Source: a virus
Taxonomy: Duplodnaviria; Heunggongvirae; Uroviricota; Caudoviricetes
DNA length: 4,730 nt
IMG/VR virus record: IMGVR_UViG_2711768074_000004
Direction: 5' to 3' (one strand)
Both the position numbers and the translations under genes were made by a program. Of the stretch, positions 55 to 4,730 are shown piece by piece. Every line of letters begins with the position of its first letter. Position 1 is the first letter of the stretch. The notes under the pieces were generated by a model. It was not told where the DNA came from. It saw nothing but the letters and a program-made list of their open reading frames with translations, and did no database searches.

Positions 55-123
55 TTATTTTTGTAGAGCCGGAGGAAACAGACCAGACGGTTTAAATGAG
101 CCGGTTACAAAAAGATTCGCATT

Positions 124-552
124 TTGGATTGTTCTCCAGAGTTTTGTGCCCGCAATTTTGCGGAGACATCAATTTTGGTACGCCAGCCCAACGGCGGTAC
201 TCGCAAACTACCTTGCTATCAAATAACCCGCGATGGCTTTGCGTTTCTTGCTATGGGTTTCACGGGTAAACGTGCTGCCCAGTTCAAAGAGGCATACATC
301 AATGCCTTTAACCAGATGGAGAAACAGCTTTCAAAGCCCTCTGTACCGAGCGACGTTGCACATAACGCCAGCGTTCTCTATTCCTACATTTCATCAATTC
401 ATCAGGTCTGGTTGCAGCAGCTTTATCCCATGCTGGAAAAAGCTGAATCACCGCTGGCTGTAAGTCTGTATGACCGAATTAACGATGCGGCATTTCTTGC
501 CCGTCTTATTCATTCGTCGCTGAACTCTTCAGAGGTAAGGGGGCGCAAATGA
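124..552 (+). CDS. Rha-family phage regulatory protein; only the C-terminal half of the Rha domain is in this frame, 5' end appears degraded or frameshifted
   Basis: Translation contains LDCSPEF...NFAETS...LPCYQITRDGFAFLAMGFTGKRAAQFKEAYINAFNQME, which matches the conserved C-terminal half of the Rha domain as I recall it. An in-frame stop lies at 97-99 immediately upstream, and the ORF-track start at 124 is a TTG with no clear Shine-Dalgarno. N-terminal-like fragments appear in the other two frames upstream (MMDIIFVE..., ...EPVT...). Confidence 0.55.
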   Translation: MDCSPEFCARNFAETSILVRQPNGGTRKLPCYQITRDGFAFLAMGFTGKRAAQFKEAYINAFNQMEKQLSKPSVPSDVAHNASVLYSYISSIHQVWLQQLYPMLEKAESPLAVSLYDRINDAAFLARLIHSSLNSSEVRGRK

Positions 553-773
553 TCCGGAATATTTTCAAACGTTTTACCAATCAGACTTTCCGTTGTCCTC
601 GTCCGGGTCAGTGGTACACCACGCCTGCAGGGCATGTTCTACGTGTTAGCCTGGTTGACCGTGAATGTCAGAAGGTGGTTTGTGAACCGCTGGGCCGTAA
701 TTACCGCGTCAGTATGCCGCTTATAGCCTTTCGCTCCGGAAAAAACATGAAGCATCTCGGAGGTGCTGCATGA
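549..773 (+). CDS. hypothetical small phage protein (74 aa)
   Basis: ATG at 549 overlaps the upstream stop (ATGA). Shine-Dalgarno-like AAGGGGG at 538-543. Its stop in turn overlaps the start of the replication gene. Three Cys residues; no family recognised. Confidence 0.5.
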   Translation: MIRNIFKRFTNQTFRCPRPGQWYTTPAGHVLRVSLVDRECQKVVCEPLGRNYRVSMPLIAFRSGKNMKHLGGAA

Positions 774-1588
774 GTATGGAGCTGATGGTTAAAGCGATGA
801 AAATTCGAGTGGGAAATCCATTGCGAAAACTGGTTCTGATCAAGCTGGCTGATAATGCCAGCGATCAGGGGGAGTGCTGGCCCAGCTACCAGCATATTGC
901 TGACCAGTGCGAGATTAGCAAACGTTCTGTGATGAATCATATTGCGGCCCTTTGTGAGTCCGGGCTGGTAAAAAAAGTCACCCGGAAAGGTGAAAAAGGT
1001 AACTCAAGTAATATCTATCTCCTTCATCTGGATGGTGCAGGAGATTCACTAGGGGGTAGTGCAAATAATTCACTATCTGGTGCAGCAAATTCACCAGGTA
1101 GTGCAGGAGTTGCACCAGGGGGTAGTGCAGGAGATTCACCCAGAACCAGTCACTCTTTTGAACCAGTCAAAGAACCAGTCAATGAACCAATAGCTGTTGG
1201 TGCATCTGCTGATGAGTCTGTGCGAGTTCGTTCAAACCGACCGGAATACTCTCCGGAGTTTGAGCAGGCATGGCTGGTATATCCCAAACGTGCTGGTGGC
1301 AATTCAAAATCTGCAGCCTTCAAAGCCTGGAAAGCCCGTTTGAATGAGGGGGTAAACCCCGAAACCATGCTGGAAGGTGTGAAACGCTACGCGGGCTGGG
1401 TATCTGCGATGGGTAACAGCGGCACACAATTTGTGAAACAGGCTGTCACGTTCTTTGGTCCGGATCGTCATTTCGAAGAATCCTGGGAAGTTCCTGCGGT
1501 ATCTGCAGCCAGACGCGAGGACCCGTACTTCAAAGCCAGTTACGACAATGTGGACTACAGCCAGATCCCGGTAGGATTCAGGGGGTGA
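770..1588 (+). CDS. phage replication initiation protein: N-terminal helix-turn-helix domain, Gly/Ser/Ala-rich linker encoded by iteron-like repeats, C-terminal domain of unrecognised family
   Basis: ATG 770 preceded by GGAGG at 759-763. N-terminus (NPLRKLVLIKLADNASDQGECWPSYQHIADQCEISKRSVMNHIAALCESGLV) resembles the HTH of phage O-like / DnaD-like initiators. The middle of the gene (1031-1193) consists of direct DNA repeats, as lambda ori does inside gene O. Confidence 0.8.
   Translation: MSMELMVKAMKIRVGNPLRKLVLIKLADNASDQGECWPSYQHIADQCEISKRSVMNHIAALCESGLVKKVTRKGEKGNSSNIYLLHLDGAGDSLGGSANNSLSGAANSPGSAGVAPGGSAGDSPRTSHSFEPVKEPVNEPIAVGASADESVRVRSNRPEYSPEFEQAWLVYPKRAGGNSKSAAFKAWKARLNEGVNPETMLEGVKRYAGWVSAMGNSGTQFVKQAVTFFGPDRHFEESWEVPAVSAARREDPYFKASYDNVDYSQIPVGFRG
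1031..1141. repeat. five imperfect ~20-24 bp direct repeats (iteron-like), core GGT(A)GTGCA-N5-T(T/G)CAC with internal dyad symmetry; putative phage ori
   Basis: Units read directly: 1031 GATGGTGCAGGAGATTCACT; 1051 AGGGGGTAGTGCAAATAATTCACT; 1075 ATCTGGTGCAGCAAATTCACC; 1096 AGGTAGTGCAGGAGTTGCACC; 1117 AGGGGGTAGTGCAGGAGATTCACCC. Unit 4 carries a perfect GTGCA/TGCAC inverted pair. Confidence 0.5.
1143..1193. repeat. three copies of GAACCAGTCA plus one degenerate copy (GAACCAATAG), immediately downstream of the iteron block
   Basis: GAACCAGTCA at 1143-1152, 1160-1169 and 1172-1181; GAACCAATAG at 1184-1193. Confidence 0.4.
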
Positions 1589-1590
1589 TC

Positions 1591-2079
1591 ATGAGTCTTT
1601 TGAATGAAGTTCAGAAATTCATTGAAGCCCATCCGGGGTGTACTTCCGGAGACATTGCGGATGCTTTTGCAGGTTACTCACGGCAGCGCGTTCTGCAGTC
1701 TGCAAGCAAGTTACGTCAGAGTGGGCGTGTGGCTCACCGTTGTGAAGGAGATACACGCAGACATTTCCCACGCCTGACTGAGAGAGCGCAGGAGCCGGAA
1801 CCACAACCAGTTCGTGAAACCAGACCTGTGCGCAATTTCTATGTCGGCACTAACGATCCCCGGGTGATTTTGTGCCTGACCCGCCAGGCTGAAGAACTGG
1901 AGTCAAGGGGCTTATACCGTCGTGCTGCAACCGTGTGGATGGCGGCATTCCGTGAAAGCCACTCCCAGCCAGAACGAAACAATTTTCTGGCGCGTCGTGA
2001 GCGGTGCTTACGGAAAAGCAGCAAGCGCGCTGCATCAGGTGAAGAGTGGTATCTATCAGGGAATTACGTGGGGGCTTAA
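1591..2079 (+). CDS. PerC-family transcriptional regulator-like protein with an N-terminal winged-helix-like extension
   Basis: C-terminal segment AEELESRGLYRRAATVWMAAF...ERNNFLARRERCL matches the PerC signature as I recall it (A..LE..GLWRRAA.RW ... RR..C). ATG at 1591 follows GGGGG at 1580-1584; the ORF track's GTG at 1585 is in frame and overlaps the upstream stop. Stop TAA 2077-2079 overlaps the next ATG (TAATG). Confidence 0.6.
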   Translation: MSLLNEVQKFIEAHPGCTSGDIADAFAGYSRQRVLQSASKLRQSGRVAHRCEGDTRRHFPRLTERAQEPEPQPVRETRPVRNFYVGTNDPRVILCLTRQAEELESRGLYRRAATVWMAAFRESHSQPERNNFLARRERCLRKSSKRAASGEEWYLSGNYVGA

Positions 2080-2732
2080 TGAGTAATAAATATTGCCAGG
2101 CGCTGGTGGAACTGCGGAACAAACCAGCCCATGAACTGAAGGAAGTGGGCGATCAGTGGCGCACGCCGGACAACATTTTCTGGGGAATTAACACCCTGTT
2201 TGGCCCGTTTGTTCTGGATCTGTTCACTGATGGTGATAACGCCAAATGTGCCGCTTATTACACTGCGGAAGACAACGCGCTGGCGCATGACTGGTCAGAA
2301 CGTCTTGCGGAGCTTAAAGGTGCTGCCTTTGGTAATCCCCCGTACAGCCGCGCCAGTCAGCATGAGGGGCAATACATCACCGGCATGCGTTACATCATGA
2401 AACATGCCAGTGCTATGCGTGATAAAGGCGGGCGCTATGTTTTCCTGATCAAAGCTGCCACCAGCGAAGTGTGGTGGCCGGAAGATGCAGACCATATTGC
2501 TTTTATTCGCGGGCGTATTGGTTTTGAACTGCCAGCCTGGTTTATCCCGAAGGACGAGAAGCAGGTGCCGACAGGCGCTTTCTTCGCTGGTGCTATTGCT
2601 GTTTTCGACAAGACCTGGAAGGGACCGGCAATCAGCTACATCGGGCGCGATGAACTTGAGGCATGTGGTGAGGCGTTTCTGGCGCAGGTTCGCCAGCAGG
2701 CAGAAAAACTTGTCAGGGAGATGGCGGCATGA
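2079..2732 (+). CDS. DNA N6-adenine methyltransferase, phage Dam family; orphan (no restriction endonuclease partner in the window)
   Basis: Translation MSNKYCQALVELRNKPAHELKEVGDQWRTPDNIFWGINTLFGPFVLDLFTDGDNAKCAAYYT...FGNPPYS carries the NPPY catalytic motif of amino-methyltransferases. ATG 2079 preceded by GGGG at 2071-2074; the ORF-track start at 2046 is an in-frame upstream extension lying inside the previous gene. Confidence 0.85.
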   Translation: MSNKYCQALVELRNKPAHELKEVGDQWRTPDNIFWGINTLFGPFVLDLFTDGDNAKCAAYYTAEDNALAHDWSERLAELKGAAFGNPPYSRASQHEGQYITGMRYIMKHASAMRDKGGRYVFLIKAATSEVWWPEDADHIAFIRGRIGFELPAWFIPKDEKQVPTGAFFAGAIAVFDKTWKGPAISYIGRDELEACGEAFLAQVRQQAEKLVREMAA

Positions 2733-3055
2733 CGACGTTAACTCAATGCCAGCAGCAGGTGCTGGATATGCTGATTTCTTACCAGCAAGAGCGTGGCTTT
2801 CCGCCAACCAATCAGGAGGTGGCAACCATGCTGGGATACCGTTCAGTGAATGCAGCGGTGGAGCATCTTCGCGCACTGGAGAAAAAAGGCGTCATCACGA
2901 TAAAGCGTGGCGTGGCCCGGGGGATCACGCTTCATACCGCAGTGAAGGACGACGACAGCGAAGCGGTCGGTATCATCCGCGCACTGCTTGCCGGTGAGGA
3001 GAGCGCCAGGTTGCGTGCAGCCCACTGGTTACATGAGAGGGGCCTGAAAGTATGA
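2729..3055 (+). CDS. LexA DNA-binding-domain family protein (winged HTH only, no S24 peptidase domain)
   Basis: LTQCQQQVLDMLISYQQERGFPPTNQEVATMLGYRSVNAAVEHLRALEKKGVITIKRGVARGITL aligns along its length with the E. coli LexA N-terminus ([65 protein letters not shown]). At 108 aa it has no room for the cleavage site or Ser/Lys dyad. ATG overlaps the methyltransferase stop (ATGA). Confidence 0.8.
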   Translation: MTTLTQCQQQVLDMLISYQQERGFPPTNQEVATMLGYRSVNAAVEHLRALEKKGVITIKRGVARGITLHTAVKDDDSEAVGIIRALLAGEESARLRAAHWLHERGLKV

Positions 3056-3441
3056 AGTTGATCCTTCCTTTCCCGCCCAGTGTGAACACGTACTGGCGAC
3101 ACCCCAACAAAGGGGCATTTGCTGGTAAGAGCCTGATAAGCGAGGCGGGGCGAAAATTTCAGAGCGCGGCGTGCGCAGCAATAGTTGAGCAGTTACGTCG
3201 TCTGCCGAAACCAACGTCGGCACCTGCTTCAGTGGAGATCGTGTTGTTTCCGCCGGATAACCGGATCCGTGATCTGGACAACTATAACAAGGCGCTGTTT
3301 GACGCCCTGACCCACGCGGGTGTGTGGGAAGACGACAGACAGGTGAAAAGAATGCTGGTGGAGTGGGGACCGGTTATCCCGAAAGGGAAGGTCGAGATCA
3401 CTATCAGTAAGTACGAGAAAACGGCGGGTGCAGCCGCCTGA
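3052..3441 (+). CDS. rusA: RusA-family Holliday junction resolvase (crossover junction endodeoxyribonuclease)
   Basis: PFPPSVNTYWRH...RIRDLDNYNKALFDALTHAGVWEDDRQV...EITISKYE parallels E. coli RusA (LPWPPSNNRYYRH...[28 protein letters not shown]...ELTITE), including the catalytic acidic residues. ATG overlaps the upstream stop. Confidence 0.9.
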   Translation: MKLILPFPPSVNTYWRHPNKGAFAGKSLISEAGRKFQSAACAAIVEQLRRLPKPTSAPASVEIVLFPPDNRIRDLDNYNKALFDALTHAGVWEDDRQVKRMLVEWGPVIPKGKVEITISKYEKTAGAAA

Positions 3442-3460
3442 TCAAGAGGAGAAACGAAGT

Positions 3461-4270
3461 ATGAATAATCTGATGGTCATTGATGGTATTGAAGTTCGTC
3501 GTGATGCTTATGGGCGTTACAGCCTGAACGATCTGCATCGCGCAGCAGTAGCATCTGGTGCAAATGCCAGAACCAAGGAGCCAGGAAAGTTTCTTTCCAG
3601 CCAACAAACTGTTGAGCTTGTTCATGAATTGACCAACACCCAGAATTTGGGTGTTGACCCGGTGAGTGTGATTCATGGGGGAAATGAACGGGGAACGTAT
3701 GTCTGCAAGGAACTGGTGTATGCCTATGCAATGTGGATCAGCCCGTCATTCCATCTGAAGGTGATCCGTACTTTCGACATGGTAACCAGCGCACCGGAAA
3801 AATTATCCGGACAGGCTGCTGACAAGATGCAGGCTGGTGTGATTCTGCTGGACTTTATGCGCCGGGAATTAAACCTGTCTAACTCTTCAGTGCTTGGTGC
3901 CTGTCAGAAACTCCAGGAGGCTGTTGGCTTACCGAATCTGGCACCGCGCTATGCCATTGATGCTCCTGCTGACGCGCCTGATGGCTCAAGCCGCCCCACG
4001 CTGTCACTGAGTGCACTGCTGAAGCAGTATGGTATCCGCCTGACAGCTAATCAGGCATATCACCAGATGGCGAAGCTGGGGATCGTTGAACAACGTGAAC
4101 GATACAGCCGCACTGCGATTAACAACATCAAAAAATTCTGGTCGCTGACAGCGAAAGGCTGCATGTTCGGCAAGAACATCACCAGTCCCGCAAATCCGCG
4201 CGAGACGCAGCCGCATTTCTTCGAATCCCGGTTCCCTGAGCTGTTAAAGCTGCTCGATACCGTTCATTGA
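3461..4270 (+). CDS. KilA-N domain protein with KilAC/Ant-like C-terminal region (antirepressor-like)
   Basis: N-terminus MNNLMVIDGIEVRRDAYGRYSLNDLHRAA...GTYVCKELVYAYAMWISPSFHLKVIRTFD is KilA-N-like; C-terminal part (LSALLKQYGIRLTANQAYHQMAKLGIVEQRE...) resembles the KilAC/Ant C-terminal domain. ATG 3461 preceded by AAGAGGAG at 3445-3452; the ORF-track start at 3428 is an upstream in-frame extension overlapping rusA. Confidence 0.8.
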   Translation: MNNLMVIDGIEVRRDAYGRYSLNDLHRAAVASGANARTKEPGKFLSSQQTVELVHELTNTQNLGVDPVSVIHGGNERGTYVCKELVYAYAMWISPSFHLKVIRTFDMVTSAPEKLSGQAADKMQAGVILLDFMRRELNLSNSSVLGACQKLQEAVGLPNLAPRYAIDAPADAPDGSSRPTLSLSALLKQYGIRLTANQAYHQMAKLGIVEQRERYSRTAINNIKKFWSLTAKGCMFGKNITSPANPRETQPHFFESRFPELLKLLDTVH

Positions 4271-4271
4271 G

Positions 4272-4643
4272 GTGACCGTGAGAGCGCTACTGACCCCTGA
4301 AATTGCCCCGCGTATGGGGATCGTATTGTTCAGGCCAGGTTCAGAGCTGATGCCCCTGTTTATGCAGGGGCGTGTCCTGCTGGAGCCTGAGCCGGAACGT
4401 TATTCATCTTTCGCCAGTGGTGCCGTTCCGGCGGCATCACAACCGCTGGCGGATGATCCTGCCGTTCGGGCCGTGTTCCGCAATGAGGCAGTGATCCGTC
4501 GTGCTGGTGGCGTGGAATGTCTTGAAAGCTGGTTACTTCGTGAAAAAGGCTGCCAGTGGCCTCATTCCGACTGGCACAGCGAGAACATGACAACAATGCG
4601 ACACGCGCCGGGCGCAATCCGTCTGTGCTGGCACTGCGGGTAA
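4272..4643 (+). CDS. hypothetical nin-region protein, 3'-truncated by IS1 insertion; last residue and stop codon are supplied by the IS1 terminus
   Basis: ORF opens directly after the KilA-N gene stop (in-frame GTG 4272/4278 near GAGGTGA, or ATG 4314). It ends ...LCWHCG-TAA, where codon GGG 4638-4640 straddles the IS1 boundary and TAA 4641-4643 lies inside the IS1 inverted repeat. Family not recognised; a DUF968/YdfU-type protein is a possibility from genomic position only. Confidence 0.5.
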   Translation: MTVRALLTPEIAPRMGIVLFRPGSELMPLFMQGRVLLEPEPERYSSFASGAVPAASQPLADDPAVRAVFRNEAVIRRAGGVECLESWLLREKGCQWPHSDWHSENMTTMRHAPGAIRLCWHCG

Positions 4644-4730
4644 TGACTCCAACTTATTGATAGTGTTTTATGTTCAGATAATGCCCGATGACTTTGTCAT
4701 GCAGCTCCACCGATTTTGAGAACGACAGCG
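4639..4730 (-). mobile_element. IS1 insertion sequence, partial (92 bp in window), reverse orientation; the IRR end abuts the phage DNA
   Basis: 4639-4730 GGTAATGACTCCAACTTATTGATAGTGTTTTATGTTCAGATAATGCCCGATGACTTTGTCATGCAGCTCCACCGATTTTGAGAACGACAGCG matches the reverse complement of the right end of IS1 as I recall it, including the ~23-bp terminal inverted repeat at 4639-4661. Confidence 0.9.
4654..4730 (-). CDS. insB: IS1 transposase InsB, C-terminal fragment (partial; continues beyond the window)
   Basis: Minus-strand translation of 4730..4654 gives ...LSFSKSVELHDKVIGHYLNIKHYQ-stop, the InsB C-terminus. Confidence 0.75.
   Translation of the reverse strand, partial: LSFSKSVELHDKVIGHYLNIKHYQ

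Follow-up and report, generated by a model that had tools for sequence, protein, structure and literature searches.

We analysed a 4,730-nucleotide stretch of DNA (the window) from a virus of the Caudoviricetes, IMG/VR record IMGVR_UViG_2711768074_000004, with respect to two adjoining genes on its + strand. The first encodes an orphan phage N6-adenine DNA methyltransferase of 217 amino acids (aa) (2079-2732; the methylase), and the second a protein of 108 aa that has the DNA-binding domain of LexA only (2729-3055; the LexA-like protein or mini-LexA). Comparison of related loci indicated that the two are probably independent single-gene cassettes, which lie side by side in an operon of the SfV/mEp460 type, and that their overlaps reflect gene order and tight translational packing and no partnership.

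Independence of the two adjoining genes

The prevalence of the two genes was counted in 5,426 complete E. coli genomes, with the methylase scored at a coverage of at least 80%. The methylase was present in 1,725 of them, the LexA-like gene in 2,222, and both side by side in 1,662; the adjacent pair was also seen in about 50 sequenced phages. The E. coli copies all had DNA identities above 90% and must be seen as a single module of recent spread, not as independent evidence. When a phage collection was searched by tblastn, the methylase family was found in 1,201 records and the LexA-like protein in 63.

Among close relatives, the two genes were found in all combinations of presence and absence. 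SfIV and Ayreon carry a PerC gene and the LexA-like gene with no methylase, and the order PerC, LexA-like, RusA, again with no methylase, is found in Citrobacter prophages of two types, whose LexA-like proteins are 83% and 64% identical. In mEp390, whose LexA-like protein is about 47% identical, the order is replication gene, LexA-like, RusA. Salmonella prophages, with a methylase 88% identical in protein, have PerC, methylase and RusA and no LexA-like gene, and in phage LLS (methylase 72% identical) the methylase stands between an O-like gene and KilAC. In Cronobacter prophages the pair is separated by a second methylase gene, which encodes a 660-aa protein with an N-terminal C5-cytosine methylase domain (3861-5843 in loci L015-L017). 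Each gene was found intact and under purifying selection where the other was missing, and the most constant neighbour of the LexA-like gene was RusA (mEp390, Ayreon, Citrobacter, Cronobacter), not the methylase.

Two junctions bear directly on the boundary between the genes. When the E. coli locus L014 was compared with the window, the synonymous divergence (dS) of the methylase was 1.18 (85% protein identity), while that of the adjoining LexA-like gene was 0.15 (96%), and a recombination breakpoint lies exactly at the methylase/LexA-like boundary. In Ayreon and SfIV, TAATG leads straight into the LexA-like gene at the junction TTAATGACGACG, and taking out the 650 bp that separate the window's two ATGA tetranucleotides would give just this sequence. 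The methylase is therefore a cassette of exactly the size of its open reading frame (ORF), either inserted or deleted. The functional pairing of the two genes that was implied in a first-pass annotation of the window is thus unsupported, because of the presence/absence combinations, the ORF-sized indel and the dS contrast in L014. The slot between PerC and the LexA-like gene behaves like a landing site for methylase cargo: related prophages have none, one or two orphan methylases in it, an illustration of how temperate phages shuffle anti-restriction genes ORF by ORF.

The first-pass annotation had also described the methylase as coupled by TAATG to an upstream PerC-like gene and by ATGA to a downstream winged helix-turn-helix gene of LexA type, and both couplings are present in the window. 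The stop codon TAA of PerC (2077-2079) shares one base with the ATG of the methylase (TAATG, 2077-2081), and the ATGA lies at 2729-2732. But the overlap between the methylase and the LexA-like gene is not special, since six consecutive junctions of the window overlap by 1-4 nucleotides (nt): besides these two, there are ATGA at 549-552, at 770-773 and at the LexA-like/RusA junction (3052-3055), and GTGA at 1585-1588.

A rival explanation is that the two genes form a two-component unit, in which the LexA-type protein controls the expression of the methylase or gives it substrate specificity, as PNB-2 does for the MT-A70 methylase of phage PA8; we consider this very improbable. Several observations speak for such a unit and weigh against independence. 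The ATGA overlap suggests co-translation, and 96% of the E. coli genomes with a full methylase (1,662/1,725) have the LexA-like gene adjoining. Adjacency also recurs with a distant partner: in locus L022 a LexA-like gene with an identity of only about 50% again starts inside the gene before it, which encodes a 392-aa Dam-family protein. On comparative data alone, a weak functional link between the two genes would still fit. However, the L022 adjacency is expected from the conserved gene order and is outweighed by the separations elsewhere, namely the single genes under selection, the interposed methylase gene of Cronobacter and the breakpoint in L014. A Rosetta-stone test gave no support for fusion, as the longer methylase homologues (285-392 aa) have C-terminal extensions unrelated to LexA. 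The databases do hold 380-aa fusions of PerC with the methylase and fusions of about 290 aa of the methylase with the LexA-like protein (clusters P0253-P0276, P0254, P0268, P0270), nearly all of them in single-member clusters. Because of the 1-nt and 4-nt overlaps, these fusions (PerC+PF05869 and PF05869+PF01726) are most simply explained as frameshifts or assembly errors.

The two-component unit has a precedent in the M.EcoPA8orf6770P/PNB-2 holoenzyme of the Shiga toxin (Stx) phage PA8, in which a prophage methylase needs the winged-helix protein encoded next to it, and the pair then methylates 16S rRNA (Gong, Chakraborty and Koudelka 2023, PMC10810198). Like the enzyme of the window, the PA8 enzyme comes from a prophage, bears the annotation of a DNA adenine methylase and is encoded beside a winged-helix protein. 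However, it belongs to another family (MT-A70, with DPPW), lies in another prophage locus and has its partner upstream, whereas the window enzyme is of family PF05869 (NPPY) and occurs without a winged-helix gene in Salmonella. By family, motif and gene order, the pair in the window does not appear to be a PA8-type MT-A70/winged-helix holoenzyme.

The other form of this unit, a controller protein, was rejected. C proteins of type II restriction-modification systems have an Xre-type helix-turn-helix, and they precede and activate the nuclease gene from a C-box operator. The LexA-like protein resembles them in being a small DNA-binding protein next to a methylase, but it has a LexA-type fold, its gene lies downstream of the methylase with a 4-nt overlap in place of an intergenic operator region, and the two genes occur independently. 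A controller role is not supported because it needs a nuclease gene to regulate, and none is present. So the window does not contain a controller/methyltransferase (C-M-R) module, and the first reading, which had called the LexA-like (not Xre) fold and the gene order atypical for such an arrangement, was right on this point.

Identity, orphan status and target of the methylase

The methylase ORF runs from ATG at 2079 to TGA at 2730-2732, and its protein is identical to RefSeq WP_000066917.1. It matched PF05869 (Dam) with 156 bits (E 1e-45; cutoff 28.1) over profile positions 3-167 of 169, and the equivalog model TIGR01712 (phage_N6A_met) with 255.6 bits, 2.6 times the cutoff of 97.05, over positions 1-165 of 165. 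The PADLOC MTase_II model PDLC03263 was matched over 217 of 217 positions. Catalytic motif IV, NPPY, is read from the sequence at residues 86-89 (2334-2345, + strand), so the identification as an N6-adenine methyltransferase with NPPY, made at first sight, was confirmed. Pfam gave no MT-A70 match, and no solved structure matched the methylase by sequence. In an alignment with the Dam proteins of VT2-Sakai and Tls (T1-like), the residues N86-P-P-Y-S90, D25, W27, T29, P30, L46, D47, S129, W132, G145, R146 and F149 were invariant, and the ratio of nonsynonymous to synonymous divergence (dN/dS) was 0.04-0.09. The methylase is thus under strong purifying selection, with its catalytic and family-invariant residues intact.

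The 977-bp core of the two genes recurs with 100% identity in four complete E. coli genomes, among them EC4, where the PGAP labels are "phage N-6-adenine-methyltransferase" for the first gene and "LexA family transcriptional regulator" for the second. Five RefSeq phage records (NC_019716, NC_003444, NC_009514, NC_021857, NC_049941) label the methylase "phosphoadenosine phosphosulfate reductase". This label appears to be a misannotation that has been propagated; it seems to derive from PHROG 33262, whose profile has 495 positions and is matched by the methylase at 283-492 only. Pfam gave no match for the long ORFs that cross 2079-3055 in antisense or in alternative frames.

The methylase is an orphan (solitary) methyltransferase. 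The window has no nuclease gene on either strand, in agreement with the first-pass annotation, which had found no restriction endonuclease partner there and had named an endonuclease gene directly adjacent in the complete prophage as the finding that would speak against it. None of the related loci examined that carry the methylase has a nuclease partner adjoining it: the upstream neighbour is PerC or O-like, and the downstream neighbour is the LexA-like gene, RusA, KilAC or a second methylase. The DUF968 "HNH" gene of the window is a conserved gene of the nin region, which is also present in phages without the methylase. Elsewhere in the EC4 prophage (locus L009, 23572-26411, minus strand), a C5-cytosine methylase and a 591-aa AAA-ATPase (AAA_21/AAA_15, labelled ATP-dependent nuclease) lie between Q and the lysis genes. 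This cassette is on the opposite strand, 3 kb away from the methylase and unrelated to it, and it brings the number of methylase genes in the EC4 prophage to three.

By analogy with characterised relatives of about 30% identity, GATC is the most likely target, with a probability only a little better than even. M.EcoVT2Dam has been named as a GATC enzyme (PMC6602927), and so have M.EcoT1Dam and M.Btr190III, the last with substantial off-target activity (PMC4996451). All PF05869 members with a specificity found in the literature are GATC enzymes, and they come from very distant lineages. The window itself has 25 GATC sites, while 17.5 ± 3.6 were expected, which means that the motif is slightly over-represented and not avoided.

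Other points weigh against GATC. The GATC-named relatives are only 24-31% identical to the methylase (28-31% over 56-65% of the protein), and the subfamily of the window has three insertions relative to them. No experiment on this exact methylase was found in the literature, and the motif of its subfamily has apparently never been measured. It may therefore be asked whether "Dam family" is only a family label, and whether the enzyme acts on another or relaxed DNA motif or on a substrate other than DNA; we regard this as unlikely, though it deserves some weight. The low identity, the insertions and the off-target activity of M.Btr190III would fit it. So would the preference of another prophage "Dam-like" enzyme for rRNA (PMC10810198) and the presence, in prophages of this type, of a non-specific adenine methylase of the M.EcoGI/GII type (PMC5778455). 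Against it stand the uniform GATC specificity of the known family members across very distant lineages, the intact catalytic and family-invariant residues, and the equivalog level of the TIGR01712 model together with its score.

M.EcoGV, the "Dam homolog" of an O104:H4 prophage, was considered as the same enzyme and rejected: it is an MT-A70 enzyme, which methylates GATC when overproduced (PMC10810198). An O104:H4 genome does carry the methylase protein of the window. The paper on the non-specific methylases Hia5/Hin1523 does not mention the methylase family of the window.

An anti-restriction or epigenetic role of the methylase may be considered plausible. In an intact prophage, induction or infection would lead to transcription of the gene along with those for replication, and the enzyme would then modify replicating phage DNA, probably at GATC, and, incidentally, host DNA. 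Fast-replicating phage DNA could in this way be kept fully modified, so that it would be shielded from methylation-sensitive restriction in the next host and might be taken as "self/old" DNA by Dam-dependent processes. The timing of expression in this scheme is inferred from gene order alone, and in the window an IS66-like element replaces the repressor/pR region, so regulated expression may be lost here; both points weigh against it.

The closest characterised systems are M.EcoVT2Dam (VT2-Sakai/933W) and the Dam of T1/Tls. They are likewise solitary phage enzymes of PF05869 with invariant DxWxTP, LD, NPPYS and GRxxF, and the VT2 Dam gene, like the methylase of the window, lies in the nin region between the replication genes and Q. 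However, VT2 Dam is only 31% identical to the enzyme of the window and 40 residues shorter, T1/Tls Dam is 24-28% identical, and neither has the three insertions.

The LexA-domain-only protein and SOS boxes

The ORF of the LexA-like protein begins with ATG at 2729 and ends with TGA at 3053-3055. The protein matched PF01726 (LexA_DNA_bind) with 69 bits (E 3e-19; cutoff 23.7), the DNA-binding domain of E. coli LexA (1lea) with E 6e-16, and PHROG 362 ("transcriptional repressor") with 197 bits. Against TIGR00498 (lexA) it scored 70.3 bits over positions 1-91 of 203 only, below the cutoff of 110.95, because everything beyond the DNA-binding domain is missing. Its dN/dS was 0.09-0.13 against close relatives and up to 0.26 against distant ones, which indicates purifying selection. 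A HMMER search showed that it belongs to a small family of proteins of 106-135 aa, with the LexA domain followed by a two-helix tail and with identities of 40-54%; many other short LexA-domain proteins were found too. No publication on the window protein and nothing relevant on phage LexA-domain-only proteins was found in the literature.

An AlphaFold model from the single sequence was uninformative (predicted local distance difference test, pLDDT, 58), and the prediction was repeated with an alignment of 24 sequences (pLDDT 84). In that model, residues 6-68 form three helices and a beta-hairpin wing, a low-confidence flexible linker covers residues 69-75, and the C-terminal helices 75-87 and 93-103 form a two-helix hairpin. 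Foldseek placed the N-terminal part on 1lea with 1.3 Å and on DNA-bound LexA (3jso) with 1.0 Å, at 51% identity. By alignment with E. coli LexA, the predicted recognition helix, VNAAVEHLRALEK, covers residues 40-52 (2846-2884, + strand). The DNA-binding residues of E. coli LexA are S39, N41, A42, E44 and E45 (PMC13416735), and the LexA-like protein keeps four of these five contacts (S39, N41, A42, E45). S39, N41, R64, G65 and I66 are invariant in 24 family members.

Beyond the winged helix-turn-helix (residues 1-68), the likeness to E. coli LexA ends. The LexA-like protein, which stops at residue 108, has no Ala-Gly cleavage site (Ala84-Gly85 in LexA) and no Peptidase_S24 match, that is, no Ser/Lys protease and dimerisation domain, and it has the family-specific two-helix tail instead. 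It should therefore not undergo RecA-dependent inactivation. Judged by its sequence, it has the DNA-binding domain of a full LexA repressor and none of the cleavage and autoprotease functions. The string LLAGE (residues 86-90), which aligns to VAAGE of LexA, was considered as a mimic of the cleavage site and rejected, since distant family members have TGG or AEE there. The LexA-like protein would then be a RecA-insensitive DNA-binding regulator, which probably dimerises through its two-helix tail. Its operator may resemble the SOS-box half-site CTGT, although this can only be put forward as a tentative possibility. The replacement of the LexA contact residue E44 by V bears on an SOS-type operator and speaks against it.

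Candidate binding sequences of the SOS type for the LexA-like protein are TACTGTATTTATGAACAGTG and TACTGTAAAAATAAACAGTG. A perfect SOS box, TACTGTAAAAATAAACAGTG, was found in mEp460 (L001, 15124-15143) and in the EC4 prophage (L009, 28091-28110), where it lies 8-10 nt inside the start of a late-region gene for a non-specific adenine methylase of the M.EcoGI/GII type. This position suggests that the late-region methylase gene is controlled by LexA or a LexA-like protein. An enzyme of the M.EcoGI/GII type has been reported to be silent in lysogens (PMC5778455), and the box could explain this silence. A second perfect box, TACTGTATTTATGAACAGT(G/A), was found in O104:H4 2009EL-2071 (L010, 3761-3780) and in SfIV (L002, 3265-3284), in the 160-bp gap between rusA and a KilA-N allele different from that of the window. 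In these relatives, LexA may therefore control an antirepressor-like gene that lies one gene further down from the LexA-like gene. A third, TACTGTTTTTACATACAGTA, falls within the coding sequence of gp38, the CI-like repressor gene (S24 peptidase) of mEp460 (L001, 6073-6092).

With these boxes in mind, mini-LexA could be imagined as a phage-made, RecA-proof mimic of LexA, made early after induction, once the host LexA has been cleaved. Dimerised by its tail, it would occupy SOS boxes again and so switch off the SOS functions of the host, together with genes under LexA control in its own or in competing prophages. Its candidate targets would be the SOS-box KilA-N antirepressor-like gene (O104:H4, SfIV) and the M.EcoGI/GII-type methylase gene (mEp460, EC4). 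We consider this improbable, and less likely is the variant in which mini-LexA also docks the neighbouring methylase onto DNA. The window has no exact SOS box (CTGT-N8-ACAG), its rusA/KilA-N junction being only about 20 bp long and without one, and most loci that carry the LexA-like gene have none within 3 kb of it; these results count against the mimic. The boxes seen with one KilA-N allele only and at the late-region methylase gene are a lead for the idea and not support. Nevertheless, mini-LexA is widespread and kept by selection, and should it bind SOS boxes uncleavably, it would give prophages a new means of interfering with the SOS response of their host and with the induction of their rivals.

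The prophage segment and its known relatives

The window is a fragment of a known type of prophage, which the first-pass annotation had missed: the whole segment is a textbook annotated lambdoid prophage region, present here as a remnant truncated by insertion sequences (IS). It is the early-right (replication/"nin") part of a lambdoid prophage of the SfV/mEp460/cdtI type, which ends on the left at an IS66-like element and on the right at IS1, both of which cut into it. Positions 109-4638 (megablast matches run from 109 or 202 to 4638) form one compact operon on the + strand, from a Rha remnant to a DUF968 remnant, which is 96-98% identical to the early-right region of phages 1720a-02, mEp460, cdtI and PhiR40_1, of SfV-like phages and of many Stx2-converting phages. 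In mEp460 the order is CI-like repressor, Cro-like, Rha, O-like, PerC, methylase, LexA-like, RusA, KilA-N, DUF968 and Q, followed by the late-region methylase and the lysis genes.

Every real gene of the window is on the + strand, and the genes are packed end to end. The C-terminal part of a Rha-family regulator (124-552, Pfam assignment), of which the N-terminus is missing, is followed by a 74-codon ORF (549-773, PHROG 1153), an O-like replication protein (770-1588, HTH_36/DnaD_N) and the PerC-family (YfdN-type) protein (1585-2079; PF06069, 36 bits; PHROG 1324), which is labelled yfdN in E. coli genomes. Downstream of the methylase and the LexA-like gene come the Holliday-junction resolvase RusA (3052-3441; PF05866, 55.6 bits), a KilA-N protein (3461-4270, Pfam assignment) and the first 123 codons of a DUF968 gene (4272-4643, Pfam assignment), which is cut by IS1 and has 329-330 codons when intact in relatives. 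Simple scans found no promoter-like or terminator-like sites in the window above the shuffled expectation, and no Rfam family was matched.

The two ends, to which no strand was assigned, belong to mobile elements. Positions 1-108, which truncate the Rha gene, gave 100% matches labelled "IS66-like element accessory protein TnpA" and are multicopy, being present in 1,738 genomes. Positions 4639-4730, which truncate the DUF968 gene, gave 100% matches labelled IS1 family transposase, with a median of 10 copies per genome. The exact IS-bounded configuration was absent from the complete E. coli genomes, plasmids and GTDB representatives searched, in which the best E. coli match over 109-4638 was 97.8%.

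Such a remnant raises the question of whether both genes are here silent fossils of a decayed prophage with no current function. The fragment is bounded by IS ends and truncated in Rha and DUF968, the window lacks the repressor and the pR region as well as Q and the late genes, and K-12 carries an even more decayed copy, yfdM, all of which would agree with this explanation. However, the seven internal ORFs are all intact. Since intact prophages encode an identical methylase protein, any decay is recent. Outward transcription can start from promoters within IS elements, and even the truncated YfdM has a reported phenotype in the propagation of T1-like phage (bioRxiv 10.1101/413146). We therefore judge the fossil explanation to be possible for this copy, though on balance doubtful.

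Two further features were noted around these genes. Inside the O-like gene of the window, at 1035-1183, there are iteron-like direct repeats, with several units of about 20 nt (GGTAGTGCAGGAGATTCAC-like) spaced by 24-42 nt and then three copies of GAACCAGTCA. These repeats fit a lambda-type origin embedded in the O gene, and they also encode a low-complexity Gly/Ser/Ala stretch. In SfIV (L002, 2824-3220), rusA has a premature TGA (GGG TGA at about 2921) and no annotation, and is probably a pseudogene.

The finding matters little as it stands: standard annotation pipelines already give both genes their names, and a third of sequenced E. coli genomes have them. The remaining interest lies in the actual motif of the methylase, which is easy to measure, and in what mini-LexA binds, and both can be tested cheaply. 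In K-12, yfdM of the cryptic prophage CPS-53 is the first 41% of the methylase gene at 98.9% nucleotide identity and adjoins yfdN (PerC). It has the same gene start and the same PerC neighbour as the gene in the window, but it is a truncated remnant. A preprint has linked YfdM, by genetics and not by biochemistry, to the propagation of the T1-type phage SW1 and describes it as a putative Dam methylase (bioRxiv 10.1101/413146).

The arrangement of the gene pair is already known and annotated. It is that of dam/orf42, first listed in phage SfV, and the same genes, order, overlaps and neighbours, with proteins 94-100% identical, are found in mEp460 (gp45/gp46), cdtI, SfII, 1720a-02 and the Stx2a/Stx2c phages. 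The prophage in the window is unlike these relatives only in that it is cut by an IS element on both sides.

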